Source: Synechococcus sp. A15-24
GTDB lineage: Bacteria > Cyanobacteriota > Cyanobacteriia > PCC-6307 > Cyanobiaceae
Direction: 5' to 3'
DNA length: 32,000 nt
NCBI RefSeq assembly: GCF_014280195.1
Contig: NZ_CP047960.1
Span: 1,980,001 to 2,012,000, forward strand
The translations under genes were made by a program, and so were the position numbers. The notes below the pieces were generated by a model. That model was given only the letters and a program-made list of their open reading frames with translations. It had not been told where the DNA came from and searched no databases. Shown one piece after another: positions 12,431 to 23,421 of the stretch; position 1 is the stretch's first letter; each line of letters starts with the position of its first letter.

Positions 12431-13101
12431 GCGATCTCCAGGCGGCGGCGCTCATCCTGCAAGCGCTTGCGCCGCTGCTTGGCTTCCCGCAACATCTCCC
12501 GACCGTCGTGGAGGTAATCGTCCACGTAGCCCATGGTGTAGCGCTCCAGCTCCGCCAGGGCGTCCTCCACCTCCGAGAAGCAGTGGTAGACGCTCAACCC
12601 GAAACCACGGGCCGCTACAGGGGTGGGCAGGCTCTGAAACAGGTCCTTCACCCGCTCCAGGCGACGGCCGCTGCTCTCAAGGTAGCTGCAGAAATCCTCC
12701 ATCAGTGCGTCGTCGTAGGGGTCCGCCGAGAGGGCTTTGAGCTGTTTGGGGAAGGGATTGATCACCTCACCGAGCAGCCGATCGATGGGGACGTACACCT
12801 GCCGCAACCAGCGCACGAGGGCGTCATCGGCCTCCACTGCGCGGTCATGGCCCGTTGCCGCCCGGCTTCGATCCTGAGCTGCGGTTCCAGCGGCTGATGA
12901 CACGGGAATCCTGGTTCGATCGTGGGCTCGGCGCCGCTCGGGATCACCGAGCACTTCCCAGGCGGCATTGAGGGCGAGTATGCGCTGGTCATCGCCACCG
13001 GCATCAGGGTGGTGTTGCTTCACCAGGCGTCGATAGGCGGCCTTGATCTCAGCAGCGCTGGCGCTGCTGCTCACCCCAAGCTCGGCGTAGGGATCGGCCA
13101 T
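12427..13101 (-). CDS. J-domain (DnaJ-like) protein
   Basis: [35 protein letters not shown] is a J domain with the HPD motif. Confidence 0.85.
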
Positions 13102-13125
13102 CGGTTCCCGTCTCTGCCTCCATCG

Positions 13126-14094
13126 TCACAGCATCGGGTCCTGACGTGCCGGCGAGGACGCGACTCCACTGAACATCGGCGTGGACAGATACCGCTCGCC
13201 ATAACTGGCCAGCATCACCAGCACACGCCGCCCCTGCCACTCGGAGCGTTGACCAAGCCGCAGAGCCGCAGCAACGGCGGCACCGCTGCTGACGCCGCAA
13301 AGCAGACCCTCCTGCCGCGCCAGACGACGGCCCACATCCATCGCCTCCTCATCCGACACGGTCATCACCTCATCGATCAGATCACGCTCCAGCACAGCAG
13401 GGACGAATCCTGCACCGATGCCCTGAATGCGATGCGCACCAGGCGGCCTGCCCGAAAGCACAGCACTACCCGCCGGCTCCACTGCCACCACCTGCAGTTG
13501 AGGATTGCGCTGCTTCAGCAAACGGGCACAGCCTGTGATGGTGCCGCCGGTGCCGACGCCAGCCACCAGAGCGTCCAGCTGACCGTCGCAGTCGTTCCAG
13601 ATCTCCTCAGCGGTGGTGCGTTCATGCACCGCAGGATTGGCCGGATTGTCGAACTGCTGCAGCAGATAAGCCTCCGGGATCTCCTTCACCAACTCAGTGG
13701 CGAGGGCAATGGCTCCGGCCATGCCCTGTGCACCGTCGGTGAGCTGCAGCTCAGCCCCGTAGGCACGCAGCATCGAACGGCGTTCCGTGCTCATCGTGTC
13801 TGGCATGGTGAGGATGAGCCGGTAGCCCCGGGCAGCCGCGACCATGGCCAGCGCAATGCCGGTGTTGCCGCTGGTGGGCTCCACCAGCACCGTTCGCCCC
13901 GGCTGAATCGTTCCCTCCTGCTCCGCCGCCAGCACCATGGCGCTGGCGATGCGATCCTTCACCGATGCTGAGGGGTTGAAGCTTTCCAACTTGGCGATCA
14001 CTTCTGCCCCACAGCCGAACCGCAACGGCAGGCGGTTGAGACGAACCAGGGGTGTGCCTCCGATCAGGCCGGTGATATCGGAGGCAATGGCCAT
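13126..14094 (-). CDS. cysK: cysteine synthase A (O-acetylserine sulfhydrylase)
   Basis: [11 protein letters not shown]...[14 protein letters not shown] (PLP lysine motif), [12 protein letters not shown] and [10 protein letters not shown]. Confidence 0.95.
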
Positions 14095-14104
14095 GGCTGC
14101 TGAA

Positions 14105-16090
14105 TCAGAACCGGAAGACCGACTGAATCAAACCACCAAAGATGCCGAAGGTCGATGCACCGTTCTGATCCTGATCACCGCTGAGGTTGGCGGTGTAATG
14201 ACCCAGAGGACGTGACATCCAGAACACCGATGGCGTGATCTGAATGTTGTCAGTTACTTGGAAGGAGGCATAGAGCTCCACGAGGTAATTGGCATCATTC
14301 GGGGTATGTCCACCGGCAAGTTCAGTCGCGAAGTTGGGCATACCGAAGCCGACACCAAGGTCGTTGCCGACATCGAAGACGTCATCCCATTTGAGGCCGA
14401 CAAACCAGGATTGGCTGGCCACAGGGGAGTACTTGAAGAATCCCGAACCCGTGATGGCACTGCGGGCATAGCCGACAGACACGGAGGGGATCCAGCCGGT
14501 CTCCTGGGGGACCCAGTACCCGTTCAGAGCGAAGTTGTGGCTGTTGCGCTCACTGCGTTCAGCGATGTAATCACCTTGATAAAGATCTTCTTCCGTCCAG
14601 TTCCAGACATCACGCCAGCATTCGTTATTGAATGAATCATCCATCATGAAATTGGTTCCACGGCGCTGGCCAGTGCCGCACTGGCCGTAGCGATACGCGA
14701 AGGCGACACCGTATTCCTCGCCTCCCCAACCAGCCTGGACCAGGAAATTACCGCGGGAGTTGTTGGTGAACATGCCGCCAAGCACCGGATCACCATCACC
14801 ACCATCCTCAGCCACATAGTTCATCGAAACCGAGAATGCTGGATCTCCCTTGTTTTCAGTCTTCTCCTTATAAATCACACCAAACATCGCACCTGTGGCT
14901 TTGTTATAGACATTCGGCACACCCGCCAATCCGGTCCAATCAAGGATGCGGGCTCCGCCACGGTTATAGGCCGAGGGCCACATCCCCAAGCTCTCGGTGT
15001 TTCTCGCCATTGGACCAACGATGAAGATCAGCGAGTGATCGATAAGTTCGTCATTCTTCAGAGGGAAGCGATAATACAAACGCCCTAAACCAAGAATATC
15101 GTCCGTACAAGGAGCGGTGCTGAGTTTTGTCAGAGGCACACCGTCGCCTGCAAAGGCGTTGTCGCAGAAGTTGCCTGCTGTGAAACTTGCGTAGAGGAGA
15201 TCCTTTCCGGTGAATGAGGTCTTCAGGTTCAGCTTCTGCTCATAGTTGAAGGTGAAGGCCCCGTACTGACTGTTGTAGGCGCGGATACCACCTCCTGTGG
15301 CATCCTTTTTCCAGGATTTGTGATCTCGGAACTTACGAGACCGGATGTCTTTGTAGTGCTTCTCGAGCTTGGTGCCTTTGATGATCTCTGTACCGCGTTT
15401 GCCGTCTTTTTCCTTCAGCGAACCATCGCGGTTGTGAACGGAACGCCAGGCTTCACGGGTTTTCTGCCAGGAGCGACTGTTCTGCGTGGAGCCAAGGGGT
15501 GATTCACGACCATCAATTTCAACGATCTGGTGCTTCTTGTCGTAATCCCAGTAGTACTTAGAACCATCATTGGTGCCATAGGCCTTGGTGGAACCCATGG
15601 TGAAGGTGCTCTTGCCCTTCAACTTGGTGGTGGTTGAAAACTGACTGGCTTCGAGGGATCCAACGCGGTCCTCCAGCAGCATGATGCTGCCCGCCACGAA
15701 GTTGAGTTCAGATTCAAATTCCTTCAGCAGCTGCTCCACCTCTTCGGTCATCTCTGTGACACGATCAAGGCAGGAGGCCAACAATGCCGCCGCTTCATAA
15801 CGCGTGATCGGGATGTAGCCGCGGAAGCGGCCGTTGGGGTAGCCAGCCACACATCCATAGGTTTTTACCAACCTCACCAGGGCCTGATAGGCCCAGTCCG
15901 TGGGGTATACATCATTGAACTGATTAACACTGGTGACCTGCTGGAGCAGTTGCTTGGCTTGTTCAAGATCGAGGGTAGCAGAGTAATCCGAAACCGAGTC
16001 AATGTTGAGGTCGGCAGCTTGTGCCGAAAGGGGAGCAATCAAAAACGTCAGTGCTGCTGGAGCGACCAAAAGGTGCTGGAGCAGTTTCAT
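14105..16090 (-). CDS. SLH-domain / OprB-type outer-membrane porin, long paralogue (G1, 661 aa)
   Basis: The ATG at 16090 gives the signal peptide [25 protein letters not shown]. It is followed by an SLH motif [14 protein letters not shown]...YPNGRFRG...TRYEAAALL, a coiled coil, [11 protein letters not shown], a beta-barrel and a C-terminal ...SVFRF. The stop lies only 10 nt from the cysK ATG. Confidence 0.9.
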
Positions 16091-16292
16091 ACCAATCCCC
16101 TCAACTTCCTGCAGGAAGCATTTCAACAACAAACTGAAGGTACCGAACGTGGGGTGTGGTGCTAGTCCATTAACCCACCGTTAAACACAATAAAAAAGCC
16201 CCCCTGATAGGGGGGCTGATCTGTGTGAGGAACAAGTCTGAAAACCCGACCGAAGTCGGGCCGTTGAATCAGAACTTGAAGACGGTCTGAAC
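16001..16292. repeat. duplicated block: G1 head + G1 5' UTR/promoter + Yfr1-like module + last 24 nt of G2
   Basis: It aligns along its full length with 18044..18334. Identity is roughly 85-90% by eye, rising to near identity over the last ~110 nt. Confidence 0.85.
16192..16260 (-). ncRNA. Yfr1-like RNA module / double terminator in porin G2 3' UTR (copy A)
   Basis: The minus strand reads CCCGAC-UUCG-GUCGGG + UUUUCAG, then unpaired ACUUGUUCCUCACACAGAUCA, then GCCCCCC-UAUCA-GGGGGGC + U6. The second hairpin is a clear rho-independent terminator. The ncRNA interpretation rests on resemblance to the Yfr1 architecture. Confidence 0.5.
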
Positions 16293-17774
16293 GACGCCAC
16301 CCCACTGGGACGCATCATCCACACCCTGAGACTGCTCAGGAAGGTAGAAGACTGCAGGAATGACTGAGATTTTGTCAGCCACCTTCAGCTTGAGGGAAGC
16401 TTCGATAGCAAGTTCAGGGGCATCAGGGTCATCGCCCTTTTGAGAGACAACGTACTGGGGGGCACCGAATCCGACAGCAAGCTTATGGCTTGACTTTGCC
16501 AGCTTGTCCCACTGGAAACCAACCATCCAGCTAGCAAGTTCTTCAACGTCAGAACCCTCAAGGGAGGAGAATCCATAACCAGCGCTGATTGAAGGAATCA
16601 GACCAGTCTCAGAAGGCTTCCAGAAACCATTGAGAGCAAAGTTATTGGAGTAGACATCAGTGCCCTTAGCGCAACTTTGCTCCTTAAAGAAGCCAGTTCC
16701 GAAACCTGCTTTGCACTGACCGTAGCGATAGCCGAAGGCAACACCCCACTTTTTAGATCCGTAGCCAATCTGGGCAGTCGTATTAGCACGTGAGTTGGAG
16801 CCGAACATGCCACCCGCGGTGGGATCGCTGTTCTCTGCTTCTCCAGCATCGGCGACATAGTTCACGGCAACAGTGAACTTAGGGTCCCCTTTAGCTACCT
16901 TCTGCTTCCAGATCAAGCCAACCAAACCGCCGGTTTCCTTGTTGTAGACACCAGGTGTGCCCCAGTGACCACCAAACATATTGAGGGTCTTCACTTTGTA
17001 AGCCGTGGGCTTCATACCCAAGCTTTCAGTATTCCGAGCCAGAGGGCCTACAATCGCGGTCAGGCCTTTTGCAACAGGGAAGCGATAGTAGAGACGATCA
17101 ACTTCCATGACGTTTCCAGACATTCCGGAAACATCCAACTTGCGCAATCCACCGGAGAAAGCAGACCCATCCTTCATGTTGCCACCGCGCAGGCGGGTGA
17201 AGAGAAGATCCTTACCAGTGAAAGAAGTCTTCAGACCAAGACGCAAGTCATAAGAGAAACTCAAGGCGTCATAGACAGATTTGTCTGCGTCAGCCTCAGA
17301 ATTAATGGCACCTGTAACGAAGGTAGCCTTACCTTTAAGCTTGGTGGTGGTGGAAAACTGAGTGGCTTCCAGTTCGCCAACGCGAGCTTCCAGACCGTCC
17401 ACTCGGCCGCGGATCACAGCCAGCTCGGTTTCGAATTCTTTGATCAGACGACGCAGCTGGTCGGTCACCTCGGTGATGCGGTCGAGGCAAGCGTTCAGCA
17501 GGGCAGCCGCTTCATAGCGGGTCATGGCCCGGTTGCCACTGAAGGTGCCGTTGGGATAACCGGCGACGCAGCCGTAACGCTCGATCAGGTTGGCGAGTGC
17601 CTGGTAGGCCCAGTCAGTCGGGTAGACGTCGGAGAACTGGGTGATGCTGGTGACCTGCTCTTCGGATGCCGAGTAGTCGGACACACCGTTGATGTTCAGG
17701 TCTGCGGCGTTGGCGCCGGAGGCCAGGAGGCCTAGGGCGGCAGGCGCTACCAGCAGTTGCTGGAAGAGTTTCAT
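16269..17774 (-). CDS. SLH-domain / OprB-type outer-membrane porin (Som-like, G2, 501 aa)
   Basis: The ATG at 17774 gives [23 protein letters not shown]. It has an SLH motif [47 protein letters not shown], a coiled coil, a barrel and a C-terminal VVQTVFKF. Confidence 0.92.
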   Translation of the reverse strand: MKLFQQLLVAPAALGLLASGANAADLNINGVSDYSASEEQVTSITQFSDVYPTDWAYQALANLIERYGCVAGYPNGTFSGNRAMTRYEAAALLNACLDRITEVTDQLRRLIKEFETELAVIRGRVDGLEARVGELEATQFSTTTKLKGKATFVTGAINSEADADKSVYDALSFSYDLRLGLKTSFTGKDLLFTRLRGGNMKDGSAFSGGLRKLDVSGMSGNVMEVDRLYYRFPVAKGLTAIVGPLARNTESLGMKPTAYKVKTLNMFGGHWGTPGVYNKETGGLVGLIWKQKVAKGDPKFTVAVNYVADAGEAENSDPTAGGMFGSNSRANTTAQIGYGSKKWGVAFGYRYGQCKAGFGTGFFKEQSCAKGTDVYSNNFALNGFWKPSETGLIPSISAGYGFSSLEGSDVEELASWMVGFQWDKLAKSSHKLAVGFGAPQYVVSQKGDDPDAPELAIEASLKLKVADKISVIPAVFYLPEQSQGVDDASQWGGVVQTVFKF

Positions 17775-17817
17775 GAGATTCCTCACACCAAAATTGAGGG
17801 AAGTGGACAGAGAGTCC
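17338..17817. repeat. near-identical porin 5' module, copy 1 (5' UTR + signal peptide + SLH + coiled coil of G2)
   Basis: Aligned by eye to 19505..19976, I count 4 substitutions and one 8-nt indel over ~480 nt. Confidence 0.9.
17779..17788 (-). promoter_or_regulatory. SD-region site GUGUGAGGAA in G2 5' UTR, complementary to the Yfr1-type CCUCACAC motif
   Basis: The mRNA reads GGUGUGAGGAAUCUC-AUG. This is an exact 10-nt reverse complement of UUCCUCACAC at 16223..16232 and 18266..18275. Confidence 0.5.
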
Positions 17818-17884
17818 ACCAGAAAAATACTGGTGAAGGAAAAGTCTGCACAGGAGGCCGCACTGTTATGTGTCCATTACTACG

Positions 17885-17911
17885 CCTTAACCAGTTTAAG
17901 CTTAGGTTAAA
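17885..17911 (-). promoter_or_regulatory. phased TTAA-core direct repeats (Pho-box-like) upstream of G2, next to the conserved TAGTAATGGACAC element
   Basis: The minus strand reads TTTAACCT-aag-CTTAAACT-gg-TTAAGGCG-TAGTAAT. The first two TTAA cores are 11 nt apart. The same layout is found upstream of the G4 pseudogene. Confidence 0.3.
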
Positions 17912-17940
17912 TAATTAGGTTGAAGGTTGTTAGCCAAAGA

Positions 17941-17966
17941 CAACCCAGCTCACAAAAGGTGGGTTG
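17941..17966 (-). terminator. degenerate terminator hairpin after the porin remnant
   Basis: CAACCCA-(12 nt)-TGGGTTG, positionally homologous to the strong terminator at 20093..20120. It lacks a proper U-tract. Confidence 0.35.
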
Positions 17967-18002
17967 AGGAAGAAAGCACAAGTAGAGATTCTTCGTTGCT
18001 AA

Positions 18003-18132
18003 TTAGAAAATGAAGTTGGACTTCACATAAGCACCGTCAACATAATGTTGAGATCCGCAGCTTGTGCTATTTGAGACCAATCAAAAATGTCAGGGCTGCC
18101 GGTGCGACCAAAAGGTCCTGGAGAAGTTTCAT
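18003..18132 (-). pseudogene. chimeric porin remnant: G1-like 5' head (promoter, UTR, signal peptide) fused to G5-like last ~13 codons
   Basis: The ATG at 18132 gives [21 protein letters not shown] (TAG at 18067). The 3' part, in another frame, reads YVDGAYVKSNFIF* (TAA at 18003), compared with DYVQGAYVKTTFTF* in G5. The junction at ~18044-18046 is an AAT microhomology. Confidence 0.8.
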
Positions 18133-18334
18133 ACCCATCCCCTCAAATTCCTGCAGGAAGCATTACAACAACAAACTGAAGGCACCGAACTTGGGGAGTT
18201 GTGCTTGACCCCATTAACCCATTACTAAACACAATAAAAAAGCCCCCCTGACGGGGGGCTGATCTGTGTGAGGAACAAGTCTGAAAACCCGACCGAAGTC
18301 GGGTTATGAATCAGAACTTGAAGACGGTCTGAAC
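18044..18334. repeat. duplicated block, second copy (remnant head + Yfr1-like module + last 24 nt of G4)
   Basis: See 16001..16292. Confidence 0.85.
18236..18305 (-). ncRNA. Yfr1-like RNA module / double terminator in porin G4 3' UTR (copy B)
   Basis: The minus strand reads AACCCGAC-UUCG-GUCGGGUU + UUCAG, then unpaired ACUUGUUCCUCACACAGAUCA, then GCCCCCC-GUCA-GGGGGGC + U6. It is nearly identical to copy A. Confidence 0.5.
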
Positions 18335-19933
18335 TACACCGCCGAACACACCAACGGACTTGTCGTCGGGAGTCTCGAATCCGTAAGGACGAGAAAGCCA
18401 GTAAATTGCAGGGGTTACAGCAATTTTGTTGGTGACCTGGAACTTGTACCAGAGCTCCATGGCATAGTTGCCATCGGCAACAAAATCACTTTCGCCTTTG
18501 CGATCAATCTTAGTCACGAACCGTGGCTGACCAATAGCAGCTCCAAGGGCGTTCTTCTTCTGGAAAACATCATTCCAAGTAAGACCCACCATCCAAGAGG
18601 CCATCTCACGGATTTCGGTCGCATCCTCCCAGTCATCGTTGCCGTTGCTGTAGGAAGCACCAACACCCGCACTAATGGAAGGAATCATGCCTGATTCCTC
18701 AGGGCGCCAGAGGCATGGAGTGACCAGTTGTGGCTATAGGCATCAGAACGAACTTCTTTGCCGTCTTTATTTTCAACGGTGCAAGAAGTGTCGCCCTTAC
18801 CAGCGAACTCTGTACCAGTACGGAATTTAGCTCCGCACTGTCCGTAGCGATAACCAGCGGCAAGGCCCCATCTCTTGGTTCCGTAGGCAATCTGGCTGGT
18901 GATGTTCGCTTCGGAGTTATCGGTCATGAAGCCACCCGAATTGGGGTTGCTATCTTCACCCTCTCCGGAGTCAGCAATGTAGTTAGCGGCAAGAGTCCAG
19001 TAAGGATTGCCCTTTCCGGCGCTCTTCTTGTTGGTGTAGATCAGACCGAAGCCGCTGCCAGTTTCCTTGTTCCAGACGCCGGGGGTTCCCAGAGAACCAC
19101 CGAAGAAGTCGAGAACCTTCTGGCCACCCTTGGCATAAGCACTGGCCTTGTAGCCCATCATTTCGGTGTTGCGGGTCAGAGCACCGATCTGAGCCTTAAA
19201 TCCGCTGCCCAGGGGAAATCGATAGTACAAACGATCAATCTCAACAGCGTTGCCGCCAGGAGCACCAGTGTCAAGCTTGTTCAAGCCAACACCGTTGCCA
19301 TCCCAAACCGAGGCATCGCCCTGGTTGCCGACACGGAGGCGAGTGAAGAGCAAATCCTTACCAGTGAAGGACGTCTTCAGACCCAGGCGCAGGTCATAAC
19401 TGAAGGTGAAAGCGCCGTACTCAGCGTTGTAGTCATCCCTCATATTGCCAGGGTTATCACCAAGAGCTTTGGTGGCACCCATGACGAAATTCGCCTTGCC
19501 TTTCAGCTTGGTGGTGGTGGAGAACTGAGTGGCTTCCAGTTCGCCAACGCGAGCTTCCAGACCGTCCACGCGGCCGCGGATCACAGCCAGCTCGGTTTCG
19601 AATTCTTTGATCAGACGACGCAGCTGGTCGGTCACCTCGGTGATGCGGTCGAGGCAAGCGTTCAGCAGGGCAGCCGCTTCATAGCGGGTCATGGCCCGGT
19701 TGCCACTGAAGGTGCCGTTGGGGTAACCGGCGACGCAGCCGTAACGCTCGATCAGGTTGGCGAGTGCCTGGTAGGCCCAGTCAGTCGGGTAGACGTCGGA
19801 GAACTGGGTGATGCTGGTGACCTGCTCTTCGGATGCCGAGTAGTCGGACACACCGTTGATGTTCAGGTCTGCGGCGTTGGCGCCGGAGGCCTAGGGCGGC
19901 AGGCGCTACCAGCAGTTGCTGTAAGAGTTTCAT
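18311..19933 (-). pseudogene. SLH/OprB porin pseudogene (G4): two frameshifts
   Basis: The ATG at 19933 is followed by an 8-nt deletion at ~19890 relative to G2 (ccggaggccaggaggcctagg versus ccggaggcctagg). This shifts the frame inside the signal peptide. A second, 1-nt deletion at ~18710 splits the barrel into ORFs 18685..19851 and 18311..18688. The repaired reading is ...SLHA(F)WRPEESGMIPSISAG. Confidence 0.8.
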
Positions 19934-19976
19934 GAGATTCCTCACACCAAAATTGAGGGAAGTGGACAGAGAGTCC
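19505..19976. repeat. near-identical porin 5' module, copy 2 (G4 pseudogene)
   Basis: See 17338..17817. Confidence 0.9.
19938..19947 (-). promoter_or_regulatory. SD-region site GUGUGAGGAA in G4 5' UTR (same as G2)
   Basis: Identical to the G2 site and lying within the near-identical 5' module. Confidence 0.45.
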
Positions 19977-20043
19977 CTAAAAAAGATACTGGTGAAGCAA
20001 AAGCATCCACAAGGGTCCGCACAATTTTGTGTCCATTACTACA

Positions 20044-20071
20044 CTTTGAACAATTTAAAGCAAGTTTAAAG
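20044..20071 (-). promoter_or_regulatory. phased TTAA-core direct repeats (Pho-box-like) upstream of G4
   Basis: The minus strand reads CTTTAAAC-ttg-CTTTAAAT-tg-TTCAAAGT-g-TAGTAATGGACAC. The two TTAA cores are 11 nt apart. Confidence 0.3.
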
Positions 20072-20092
20072 GCCAGAGTGGCAGTTAAAGGC

Positions 20093-20120
20093 AAAAAAAA
20101 CCCACCTCATAAGAGGTGGG
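20093..20120 (-). terminator. rho-independent terminator of porin G5
   Basis: The minus strand reads CCCACCUC-UUAU-GAGGUGGG followed by U8. Confidence 0.85.
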
Positions 20121-20159
20121 TCGGAAAAGAAAGAACAAGTGGAGGTTCTTCGTTGGCGA

Positions 20160-21611
20160 TCAGAAGGTAAATGTGGTCTTCACGTAAGCACCTTGGACGT
20201 AATCACTTGAAAGATCGCCGGAATACTCATCAATGATGAAGTAAGTCGGCGTGACGGTGATGTTGTCGGTAACGGCAAACTTATAGAAGATTTCCCACAT
20301 CATGTTGTAGTCGTCTTCGATTTTAGGAGCCTGACCGATGGCTGTGCCGAATGAGTTACCTTCAATGCCGACATCAGACCACTCAAAACCGGCGTACCAG
20401 CTGGTGATCTCTTCGTCTGAATCGTCAGGGTTAGACAATGAGTAACCACCACTCACAGAAGGAATGATACCTGAATCTGCAGGTGCCCATGCTGCAGCAA
20501 TGCTGAAGCCATGACGGCTGTCACCAGCTTCAGCAGCTGCCTTGTTGGTGCCGATGGTCAGGCCAACATTTTGCGCGTAGGCATAACCAACTTGAGCCAA
20601 GAAGCTACCTTCAGCGATTTCACCTTCATAGAAAAGCTGCCAAGAAGATGTCGAACCGGTTTCAGCACGGCCAATGCCCGTACTGCTTCCATCCCATGCG
20701 ACGTAGTTGCCGCTGAGTTTGAAACCAGAGTCTCCAAGCGTATAAATACCACCCAAGCCGGCGCCGGTGCTAGCCAGGTTGTTGGTTGCCCAGGCACCGC
20801 CATAGGTGAAGAAGTCCAGCAGCAGGTCGGAGGGGTAGAAGGTTGCATAGCCGGCGTACATACCAGGGTCATCCGTCCTCACCACAGGACCAGCTGTCAC
20901 CGTCAGGTTCTCACCAACAGGGAAGGTGTAGAACAAGCGACCTATTTTGACGGTGTTACCGGAGGACATGGCGGTCTCAACAAAGGTGAGACCTTCATCC
21001 CAGACGGAGGGACCGAAGTTACCGGAACGCAGAACGGTCGTCAGCATGTCCTTACCCGTGAAGGACGTTTTCAGGGCAAGACGAAGGTCGTAGTTGAAGG
21101 TGAGTGCCTCACCCTCATCATCGTCGAAACCTTCAGCAGCACCAAAGACCCAAGCGGAGTAACCCTTCAGCTTGGTGGTGGTGGAGAACTGGGTCGCTTC
21201 AAGTTTGCCGACGCGAGCCTCGAGACCGTCGACTTTGCCGGCGATCATTGCGAGTTCTTTCTCGAACTCAGAAATAAGACTCTTGAGTTGATCGGTCACC
21301 TCGGTGACGCGATCGAGGCAGGCATTCAGCAGGGCAGCCGCTTCGTAGCGGGTCATGGCCCGGCCACCACGGAAGGTGCCGTTGGGGTAGCCGGCCACGC
21401 AGCCGTACTGATCCACCAGGTTGCTCAGAGCCTGGTAAGCCCAGTCGGTGGGATAAACGTCAGAAAACTGGGTGACGCTGGTGACCTGATCCTTCTTGGA
21501 AGAAGAGGAGTACTCAGCAACACCATTGATGTTGAGCTCGGTGGCATTGGCACCGGTGGCCAGAAGGCCAAGGGCGGCTGGAGCCACCAGCAATTGCTGG
21601 AAAAGCTTCAT
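20160..21611 (-). CDS. SLH-domain / OprB-type outer-membrane porin (Som-like, G5, 483 aa)
   Basis: It has a signal peptide [23 protein letters not shown], an SLH motif [47 protein letters not shown], a coiled coil, a barrel and a C-terminal YVKTTFTF. Confidence 0.92.
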   Translation of the reverse strand: MKLFQQLLVAPAALGLLATGANATELNINGVAEYSSSSKKDQVTSVTQFSDVYPTDWAYQALSNLVDQYGCVAGYPNGTFRGGRAMTRYEAAALLNACLDRVTEVTDQLKSLISEFEKELAMIAGKVDGLEARVGKLEATQFSTTTKLKGYSAWVFGAAEGFDDDEGEALTFNYDLRLALKTSFTGKDMLTTVLRSGNFGPSVWDEGLTFVETAMSSGNTVKIGRLFYTFPVGENLTVTAGPVVRTDDPGMYAGYATFYPSDLLLDFFTYGGAWATNNLASTGAGLGGIYTLGDSGFKLSGNYVAWDGSSTGIGRAETGSTSSWQLFYEGEIAEGSFLAQVGYAYAQNVGLTIGTNKAAAEAGDSRHGFSIAAAWAPADSGIIPSVSGGYSLSNPDDSDEEITSWYAGFEWSDVGIEGNSFGTAIGQAPKIEDDYNMMWEIFYKFAVTDNITVTPTYFIIDEYSGDLSSDYVQGAYVKTTFTF

Positions 21612-21617
21612 GGGGGA

Positions 21618-21629
21618 TCCTCACACAGA
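21618..21629 (-). promoter_or_regulatory. SD-region site UCUGUGUGAGGA in G5 5' UTR, complementary to the Yfr1-like core
   Basis: The mRNA reads UCUGUGUGAGGAUCCCCC-AUG. This is a 12-nt exact reverse complement of UCCUCACACAGA in both Yfr1-like modules. Confidence 0.5.
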
Positions 21630-21816
21630 ACATGGGCGCAACAGCGCCACCTAGATCTCATAGGGCTTTACCAAGCTTTAACCAAGCAATCCTGTGCCAG
21701 CTCCCTCAATGACTAGTAACAGGTGTCACAGAAAACGCCTAAAAGCGTTTGCTACGAACATAAAATTGATTCATGTGGGCAACCACCCACAGTGGGGACG
21801 GCTCCTTGTGCGCTCC

Positions 21817-23421
21817 ATGTCCTCTCGGGTCCTGCGCGTCGCCATTCTCTTTGCAGCCGTCCTGCTGGCGCTGCAGGCCTGGCGGTCCTGGGTGCTCCTG
21901 GCCAGTTACGACCAGGGAATCTTTCAGCAAGTGCTATGGAACTCTCTCCAGGGTCATCCGTTTGAAAGCACCCTCTCCTCGCAGCTCTCCACCAATGTGA
22001 TCCACGCCGGGGAGCTGCCCTCGGTCGACTACGAGCGGCTTGGTCAGCATTTCACCCCCACTCTCCTGCTCTGGACACCCCTTCTGGGGCTGATCGGAGG
22101 TGCCGCCCTGCCGCTGGTGCAGGTGGGACTGATCACGGCGGCTGGCCTCACATTGCATCGACTGGCCTTGGGTCTGCTGCCGGAACGCACTGCCAACTGG
22201 CTCACCTACGGCTTCTTTGCAGGTAATGCCCTTATCGGCCCCACGCTCGGGAACTACACCGACCTCTGCCAGCTGCCCCTGGCCGTGTTTGTCCTGATGC
22301 TCGGCCTGGTGGAACGTCGCCGCTGGTGGATCACTGGGGCAGCCCTATGGATCCCTTTGATCCGCGAGGACACCGGTGTGCTGCTGGTGGCCATCGGTCT
22401 GTGGCTGCTGCTGCGGCAACGGCAGCGCTGGCCGTTGGCCATGACCTTGATCGCCTGGGGTGGTGGCTGGGTGGTGATCTGCACCAACCTGCTGATGCCG
22501 CTGTTCTCCGACGACAACGCCAAGCGGTTCATGGTGGAGAACTTCGGACAGTATCTGGGGGACGAGAACAGCAGCTCAAGCCTCGGGATCGTGGGCCACG
22601 CCCTGCGCCAGCCCCTGCTGCTGCTTCAGCAATTGGTGGATCCGCCGGGTCAAACCCTGCTGTATCTGCTCGGCCACGGCCTGCCCTTTCTGTTTGTCCC
22701 TGTCATCAGCCTCGACACCTGGCTGCTGGCGGGCCCCAGTCTGCTCGGGCTGTTTCTGGCCCAGGGGGCCAACGACCCCCTCTCGATCACCATCCGCTAC
22801 ACGCTGCTGGTGGTGCCGGGATTCGCCCTTGGCGCTCTGTTCTGGTGGCAGCGTCGGCCAAAATCCAACCCTGGAGCGCGAACCCGTCTGGCCTGGGGAG
22901 CTGCTCTCAGCCTGTCTCTGCTGCTGACGGTCAGCAGCAACCCCCACCGCAGCCTGTCCTTTCTGATCCCGGACAGCATTGATCCCTGGGTGTACAGCGC
23001 CCCATGGCGTCAGTGGCACCATGGCGCCGCCGCTCGCCAGGCCCTGTCCGTCATCCCCGCCGATGGCACCGTGGCCGCCAATACACCCCTGGTGCCGCTG
23101 CTCGCCAGACGCGCCGTGCTCGTGCGTTTCCCATTCGCCACGGGCTATCTGGATCGATCCGGATCTCCCCAGCAGGTGGACTGGATCGCCGTGGATCTCG
23201 AGCAGCTCGAGCAATACGGGGTTGCTTTCAGAGGCGACTGGAAACAGCTGCGCAACGCTCGCCGCTGGCTGGCGGCCCATCGCGACAGCAATCGGGTGCA
23301 GGCCATCAACAGTGGTGTGGTGGTGCTGCAGCGCAATGGCGTTCAGCATCCCAACCTTGAAGCCGCCCTCGATCGACAGCTGGATCGACCACTCCCTGCC
23401 GACCCCCGCCGGCGCTCCTGA
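21817..23421 (+). CDS. DUF2079-family polytopic membrane protein (paralogue 1)
   Basis: The ATG at 21817 is followed by TM1 and then SYDQGIFQQVLWNSLQGHPFESTLSSQLSTNVIHAGELPSVDYERLGQHFTP. The protein has many TM helices and a soluble C-terminal ~130 aa. It is a close paralogue of 26560..28188. The family name is from memory. Confidence 0.7.
   Translation: MSSRVLRVAILFAAVLLALQAWRSWVLLASYDQGIFQQVLWNSLQGHPFESTLSSQLSTNVIHAGELPSVDYERLGQHFTPTLLLWTPLLGLIGGAALPLVQVGLITAAGLTLHRLALGLLPERTANWLTYGFFAGNALIGPTLGNYTDLCQLPLAVFVLMLGLVERRRWWITGAALWIPLIREDTGVLLVAIGLWLLLRQRQRWPLAMTLIAWGGGWVVICTNLLMPLFSDDNAKRFMVENFGQYLGDENSSSSLGIVGHALRQPLLLLQQLVDPPGQTLLYLLGHGLPFLFVPVISLDTWLLAGPSLLGLFLAQGANDPLSITIRYTLLVVPGFALGALFWWQRRPKSNPGARTRLAWGAALSLSLLLTVSSNPHRSLSFLIPDSIDPWVYSAPWRQWHHGAAARQALSVIPADGTVAANTPLVPLLARRAVLVRFPFATGYLDRSGSPQQVDWIAVDLEQLEQYGVAFRGDWKQLRNARRWLAAHRDSNRVQAINSGVVVLQRNGVQHPNLEAALDRQLDRPLPADPRRRS

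Follow-up and report, generated by a model that had tools for sequence, protein, structure and literature searches.

A probable conserved RNA element with a Yfr1-like seed in the 3' untranslated region of porin mRNAs of marine Synechococcus, and its lineage-dependent second copy

Why should one short part of a duplicated intergenic block remain nearly unchanged when the rest of the block has drifted? This question is raised by a stretch of 32,000 nucleotides from Synechococcus sp. A15-24 (here, the window). In the part of the window considered here, every gene lies on the minus strand, and a Pfam scan finds among these genes four tandem paralogues that encode porins having SLH and OprB domains. 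These are G1 (14105-16090), P2 (16269..17774, intact, 501 amino acids), P3 (18311..19933, frameshifted), and P4 (20160-21611). Behind P2 stands one copy of the block (here, copy A); behind P3 stands the other (copy B). The original prediction held that the part of the block nearest to the porin stop codon is an RNA structure under selection, more than a mere terminator, and that it might be maintained independently of the porin gene before it. The first part of this view is, we believe, largely correct, while the second is not. We place at roughly 0.6 the probability of the following reading: a conserved RNA element forms the 3' UTR of the mRNAs for Som-type (SLH/OprB) porins in marine Synechococcus and related genera, and copy B (minus strand, 18236-18320) is its second, paralogous copy.

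The repeat itself is easily established. A formal pairwise alignment of 16300..16001 with 18343..18044, both read on the minus strand, has 36 differences in 294 columns, an identity of 87.8%. An estimate by eye had placed at about 85% the identity of the parts that have drifted, the former head and leader of G1; the alignment gives 75/89 for the head and 88/101 for the leader. The module is defined here as the 71 columns that begin with the stem of hairpin 1 and end with the U tail. It holds 4 differences, against 30 in the 193 columns elsewhere (Fisher P=0.038), and is therefore the best-conserved part of the block, as had been proposed, although an excess judged from two copies alone is only nominally significant. 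The longest identical run between the copies is 51 nt (P=0.024, with the 36 differences placed at random). In windows of 60 columns, the region around the G1 start (16061-16150) reaches an identity of 0.92, the same as the module.

The differences fall where they had been said to fall: in the loop of hairpin 2, at the base of hairpin 1, and in the linker beside the stop codon. The spacer between the hairpins is identical at 25 of 25 positions, as are the stems of hairpin 2 and the U tail; the hairpin-2 loops, UAUCA in copy A and GUCA in copy B, differ by a single substitution and an indel. In the 6-nt linker there is likewise one of each (4/5 identical apart from the indel), and the end of the coding sequence is 29/32 identical. 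Hairpin 1 (18/20) has GG at its base in copy A and AA in copy B, both opposite UU. This change had been taken to lengthen the stem to 8 bp in copy B. The stem of copy A, when folded, is also 8 bp, because GG and UU pair as two G-U wobbles, in the place of the two A-U pairs of copy B. Thus, the stem has been kept in copy B, not lengthened.

Read as RNA, copy B is ...CAAGUUCUGA UUCAU AACCCGAC-UUCG-GUCGGGUU UUCAGACUUG UUCCUCACAC AGAUC AGCCCCCC-GUCA-GGGGGGCU UUUUU. Hairpin 1 (18286..18305, the 8-bp stem AACCCGAC-UUCG-GUCGGGUU) and hairpin 2 (18241-18260, AGCCCCCC-GUCA-GGGGGGCU) are separated by the 25-nt spacer (18285-18261), and the U tail (18240-18236) follows hairpin 2; the bounds originally given for this module, 18236-18305, are exact. 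Hairpin 2, having the G+C-rich stem and U tract of an intrinsic terminator, is the only part that the terminator scan scores as one in either copy, hairpin 1 not being called; hairpin 2 of copy B, the terminator of P3, is also supported by covariation. A further helix, P1, is found in the minimum free energy (MFE) fold. Its 5' arm (18311..18320) is made of the last porin codons and the stop codon, CAAGUUCUGA, with the TGA at 18313-18311; its 3' arm (18276..18284) is the box UCAGACUUG, which is complementary to the stop-codon region. P1 encloses hairpin 1 to give a bipartite 5' stem, after which come an unpaired stretch and the terminator. In the predicted folds, the unpaired stretch is about 15 nt when P1 is formed (18275-18261) and 25 nt when it is not. 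Within it lies UUCCUCACAC (18266..18275), here called the seed, which shares 9 of 11 bases with the motif ACUCCUCACAC of the small RNA Yfr1. Copy A has the same parts behind the intact P2, as fold and terminator scan indicate (whole element 16192..16278; P1 arms 16278-16269 and 16241-16233; hairpin 1 16262-16243; seed 16232-16223; terminator 16217-16192; minus strand).

Of the 28 homologues from the genus, 24 have P1 in their MFE fold. Its pairing is GUUCUGA/UCAGAAC in most relatives (the major clade), CAAGU-UCUGA/UCAGACUUG here, and a shifted-register GAUUCG/CGAAUC in the relative labeled G034. In a shuffle test confined to the 9 sequences that have the box inside the tested segment, its energy was -5.8 to -9.8 kcal/mol, versus about -2 kcal/mol; support for P1 is taken from the MFE count, not from this test. 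A stop codon inside a stem may mark a site that is coupled to translation, or one of processing.

A seed of this kind, exposed between two stem-loops, of course calls Yfr1 to mind. Yfr1 carries its ultraconserved motif ACUCCUCACAC unpaired between two stem-loops (PMC2796815, PMC2190773), and it represses the som porins PMM1119 and PMM1121 by pairing at their ribosome-binding sites (PMC2796815). The element has the layout of Yfr1 (RF01116): a 5' stem-loop, an unpaired stretch of some 15-20 nt, and a terminator hairpin (PMC2796815, PMC2190773, PMC1242208). Two stem-loops that flank an unpaired region, one of 16-20 nt in Yfr1, are present here as well, both of them with covariation. The seed UCCUCACAC is identical in the two, many relatives have CA repeats after the seed, and the ribosome-binding sites of som porins are complementary to both. 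There are also differences. The 11-mer ACUCCUCACAC is matched at 9 of 11 bases, the element having GU in place of AC (GUUCCUCACAC). Further, Yfr1 is a free-standing gene whose transcript of 54-69 nt has its own promoter, whereas the element begins inside a porin stop codon, and no promoter-like site is predicted at it on the minus strand. At the CC9605 homologue, behind the som gene Syncc9605_2366, no transcription start site is listed in the portion of Table S2 of PMC5069720 that was available.

The Rfam model for Yfr1 finds no match in 15900-18500 at E<=10, its gathering threshold being 38 bits; the Rfam gathering scan of the window, together with the permissive scan of 15900-18500, returned only sub-threshold and unrelated hits to JA04, RsmY, and anti-hemB. 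The genuine Yfr1 of this genome (G000) lies elsewhere, at G000:C1:688510-688565 on the minus strand, with 65.6 bits. The element is thus not Yfr1 itself. Nor is it the Yfr10-like RNA. Yfr10 and its kin are also additional RNAs that carry the Yfr1 motif in a sequence otherwise poorly conserved (Lambrecht et al., 2019; PMC6778093), but they are separate genes that hold the motif in a loop atop a stem (PMC6778093), and the WH8102 probe for this RNA (PMC6778093, Table S4; reverse complement GAAGAGATCGAACCCTGGCTG) maps to the plus strand of G000:C1 near 1,574,330. With both Yfr1 and a Yfr10-like RNA encoded elsewhere in the genome, the porin tail is a further and distinct carrier of the seed.

Two observations concern the Yfr1 gene itself. 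The gene (G000:C1:688500-688600, locus L032) is preceded by an exact complement of its own seed, GUGUGAGGAGUGUG-loop-CACACUCCUCACAC, so that the Rfam model also matches the opposite strand, with 33.7 bits; a longer Yfr1 transcript would be predicted to sequester its seed. Also, the terminator hairpin of this Yfr1 (about 688510-688530, GGCCCGAC...UCGGGC UUU) is closely similar to hairpin 1 of the element (16243-16262 and 18286-18305, GGCCCGAC...GUCGGG UUUU). This likeness may be a hint as to where the element came from, or it may be coincidence.

A structure under selection should, of course, leave traces in other genomes. Combining BLAST with a covariance model, the element is found directly after a porin stop codon in some 27 of the 51 species genomes of the genus, each strong match beginning at the stop codon of a porin that ends in ...FKF. 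In an alignment of 28 such homologues, built from the covariance model, 96.6% of the stem cells are paired, and 11 of the 17 stem pairs have undergone compensatory change (7 of the 8 in hairpin 1). This level of covariation was reached by none of 500 shuffles, nor was it approached when the register was slid. The covariation that the original prediction proposed to seek among other marine Synechococcus is thus present. CCUCACAC is exact in 18 of the 28, and among the variants are several transitions with which wobble pairing would still be possible. A second covariance model extends the element to other genera of the family, where it follows porins that end in ...FKF or ...FNF. Here, the sequences of hairpin 1 are unrelated to those of the genus; the architecture is kept, and CUCACAC is retained. 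At three loci in other genera (L096, L098, and L103), the covariance model also matches a two-hairpin 3' region containing CCCUCA(C/G), behind a gene that encodes not a porin but a protein ending in ...VIDAEFTESK.

Closer relatives provide a finer comparison. Two of those compared, G010 and G007, are collinear with the window over 13000-22500 (identities to G000 of 95% and 90%, respectively), and both have copies A and B; another, G032, has a single unit. The identities are mosaic. Between G000 and G010, identity is 87-89% in cysK and G1 and 98-100% across 16091-21611; between G000 and G007 the pattern is the opposite, 94-95% in cysK and G1 and then 82-91% in the porin array. This implies that a breakpoint of recombination lies close to the start codon of G1 (about 16090), and that the porin array was exchanged recently. 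The start codon of cysK lies only a few bases from the stop codon of G1 (14094-14110), with neither a terminator nor a module between; in most relatives cysK directly follows the module, while here G1 stands between the two.

P4 lacks the element, its own 3' end being a plain terminator, and is a useful internal control for what an ordinary terminator does. Its 3' UTR (20091-20159) has a leader in which only 21 of 38 positions are identical between G000 and G007, a divergence of 45%. The spacer of copy A is identical at 24 of 25 positions in the same two genomes, whose four-fold sites differ at 0.24 (P2), 0.23 (P3), and 0.33 (P4). In the P4 terminator stem itself, CCUCUU/GAGG in one genome has become CCGCUC/GCGG in the other through compensatory substitutions.

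These comparisons bear on the simplest account of the element, that it is nothing but a structured 3' end, a stabilizing stem-loop followed by a terminator, whose likeness to the Yfr1 seed is a coincidence. Hairpin 2 is indeed a textbook terminator, no Rfam family matches the element, and G007 tolerates the loss of hairpin 1 in one copy and its weakening in the other. Yet an exact 9-nt match to the Yfr1 seed within a 25-nt spacer is expected by chance only about 1e-4 times, the seed persists across genera while the stems change completely, and the spacer of copy A changes at one position in 25 while the P4 leader diverges by 45%. We consider this account very improbable, and the least likely of those discussed here. 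Covariation, an architecture kept in other genera, and a nearly unchanged spacer argue together for a selected RNA structure that is more than a mere terminator.

What, then, might the seed do? Its complement lies at the ribosome-binding regions of the porin genes themselves (all on the minus strand). That of P2 (17779..17788, GUGUGAGGAA) is the perfect complement of the seed, the duplex having a predicted energy of -21.1 kcal/mol versus a mean of -10.3 for shuffled sequences; that of P3 (19938..19947) is identical to it in sequence and energy. The region of P4 (21618..21629, CUGUGUGAGGAU) forms 12 contiguous pairs with the spacer, at -24.6 kcal/mol, even though P4 has no element of its own. 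Means for shuffled sequences, with the spacer set against the leaders of P2, P3, and P4, range from -10 to -12 kcal/mol, and only 0-0.4% of the shuffles do as well as the spacer against the site of its own porin; complementarity to the parent mRNA is thus found. The leader of G1 has no complement of the seed, and its duplex, at -13.2 kcal/mol, is no better than those of shuffles. Yfr1 itself gives -19.3, -19.3, and -17.0 kcal/mol with the leaders of P2, P3, and P4, which means that the seed of the element, matched perfectly over 10-12 nt, fits the porin sites of this genome better than does Yfr1.

Further afield, the fit is looser. Host porins of the largest clade have the ribosome-binding site GGUGUGAGAAC, which offers the seed only 7-8 contiguous pairs, and the duplex of the spacer with its own site beats 95% of shuffles in only 10 of 17 cases. 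When seed variants are set against the sites of their hosts, wobble pairing would survive several of the changes (C to U, A to G) and not others; the sites are constrained by Yfr1 as well.

These duplexes suggest a mechanism. The partner of the exposed seed would be GUGUGAGGA(A), which lies over the Shine-Dalgarno region in the P2, P3, and P4 mRNAs, and pairing would occur either in trans, after 3' processing of a porin message, or inside the same message. Porin transcripts would thereby damp porin translation, giving negative feedback among the paralogues. Action of the seed upon porin ribosome-binding sites, which we infer from an anatomy and a selection that are themselves observed, is the most likely of three readings of its function; in silico, repression at these sites is predicted from the 10-12 contiguous pairs that P2, P3, and P4 offer, at -21 to -24.6 kcal/mol.

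The same bases might serve another partner. Yfr2 pairs with, and neutralizes, both Yfr1 and Yfr10 through its 5' motif GUGUGAGGAG (PMC6778093), and this genome has a Yfr2/Cyano-1 gene carrying GUGUGAGGAG at about 2,097,472. Because UUCCUCACAC pairs with GUGUGAGGAG over 10 positions, with one G-U wobble, the tails of abundant porin messages might act mainly as decoys that bind Yfr2 through the motif by which it neutralizes Yfr1 and Yfr10, and so shift the balance of Yfr1 and Yfr10 against Yfr2. The idea is attractive because the porin site of the largest clade offers only 7-8 pairs, compared with 10 from the Yfr2 motif. In the present genome, the porin sites are matched perfectly over 10-12 nt, better than Yfr1 matches them, and a decoy is in any case compatible with a role at ribosome-binding sites, the two not being mutually exclusive. 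That the element is mainly a decoy for Yfr2 is, we judge, unlikely.

If the element acts on porin ribosome-binding sites, does its second copy also matter? Here, history is informative. Copy B of G000 and copy B of G007 have in common many states that are specific to B, on both sides of the module (a GU(C/A)A loop, UAGUAAUGGG, GGUGCC, and CCAGG), as well as a 1-nt deletion in the head remnant. From these shared sites it follows that the duplication predates the split of the two genomes, and that no conversion tract runs across the whole block. Wholesale gene conversion of the block, which was to have refuted the idea that the module is specially conserved, is thereby excluded. Copy B arose by a tandem duplication of about 2.1 kb before G000 and G010 split from G007.

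The remnant of the G1 leader and the first 21 G1 codons, which was duplicated together with the module (18044..18235, minus strand), provides a near-neutral yardstick for what followed. Changes were assigned to branches by polarizing them with the A copies and G032. In the leader and head remnant (about 190 nt), 10 changes fall on the branch to copy B of G000 and 25 on the branch to copy B of G007. In the module (about 77 nt), the numbers are 0 and 11. For G000, this is no change where 4-5 were expected from the flanking remnant (P about 0.02, with small counts). For G007, the module changed at 0.14 per site and the remnant at 0.13, which is to say neutrally; the seed of this copy has become UUCCCCACAU, and its hairpin 1 has lost its fold. 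Hairpin 1 of copy A is also weakened in G007, and this, with the decay of copy B there, implies that parts of the element are dispensable. Thus, copy B is unchanged in the lineage of G000 and G010 and has decayed in G007, while copy A has been kept in both. By this pattern, one copy is under selection and the second is optional.

It would be simpler still to suppose that copy B is everywhere a redundant passenger, that its near identity to copy A reflects ancestry together with chance or a short conversion, and that only copy A, or only one element in each genome, matters. The neutral rate in G007 and the loss of seed and hairpin 1 there are what this supposition expects. Gene conversion does operate in the array, as a tract of about 480 nt shared by P2 and P3 at 98-100% identity attests; the statistics from two paralogues are weak (P=0.02-0.04); and G000 and G010 are not independent witnesses, because their arrays are 99% identical. 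The supposition must nevertheless accommodate 0 changes in the module on the branch to copy B of G000 beside 10 in the adjoining remnant. A short micro-conversion from copy A could explain the zero. The B-specific sites (the AA at the base of the stem, the GUCA loop, and the flanks) bracket the identical run, so such a tract must have been at most 51 nt and have covered exactly stem, spacer, and stem. On balance, we regard a mere passenger as possible but doubtful. The reading preferred here remains that copy B is a paralogous element, kept in one lineage and lost in the other.

This brings us to the gene behind which copy B stands. P3 of G000 is a pseudogene, as had been stated, having lost 8 nt near 19884 and 1 nt near 18710. 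From this came the suggestion that copy B may be maintained on its own, without regard to its host. The porin array of G010 is 99% identical to that of G000, and there P3 is intact (543 amino acids), which makes the lesions in G000 very recent. The pseudogene is very young, and only for this reason does copy B still look undamaged behind it. Conversely, at codon positions 1 and 2, P3 diverges by 0.032 between G000 and G007, much as the intact P2 does (0.035), so purifying selection acted on P3 for most of the time during which its module in G007 decayed at a neutral rate. The suggested independence therefore fails. P3 of G007 carries a 1-nt deletion of its own, at the equivalent of window position about 19154; the gene has been inactivated independently twice. 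Copy B is not an element that has outlived its gene; it is optional, and depends on lineage.

Precedents for such an arrangement exist in other bacteria. OppZ and CarZ of Vibrio are autoregulatory small RNAs derived from 3' UTRs, with a seed just upstream of the terminator of their own mRNA that is complementary to the parent. The porin element likewise has, as far as sequence can tell, a seed in the 3' UTR that is complementary to its parent mRNA; unlike theirs, its seed copies that of an existing small RNA that acts in trans. In the icaR mRNA of Staphylococcus aureus, an anti-Shine-Dalgarno motif in the 3' UTR pairs with the 5' UTR. The porin element is predicted to resemble it in that its 3' UTR is complementary to the message's own ribosome-binding site; it comes from a different organism and carries another motif. 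A porin 3' UTR element carrying the Yfr1 motif was not found described in the searchable literature, which is itself incomplete.

With their orthologues, the two copies amount to a natural experiment on a small scale, in which one copy is fixed and the other depends on lineage. The way that copy B has been kept and lost sets bounds on how essential the element can be, and argues against its surviving alone behind a dead gene. Yfr1 is among the most conserved small RNAs of cyanobacteria, and porins are its validated targets. A Yfr1 seed that is exposed in the tails of porin mRNAs, is under selection, and recurs across genera points to feedback or cross-talk among porins, and with Yfr2 as well. 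As a more speculative picture, which we hold only tentatively, a mimic of Yfr1 might be built into the porin mRNAs of marine picocyanobacteria, its 5' stem containing the stop codon, so that the amount of free seed would be set by terminating ribosomes or by processing; porin paralogues would then regulate each other and titrate Yfr2. Were this true, porin tails that mimic Yfr1 would constitute an undescribed, mRNA-borne layer of the network formed by Yfr1, Yfr2, and Yfr10.
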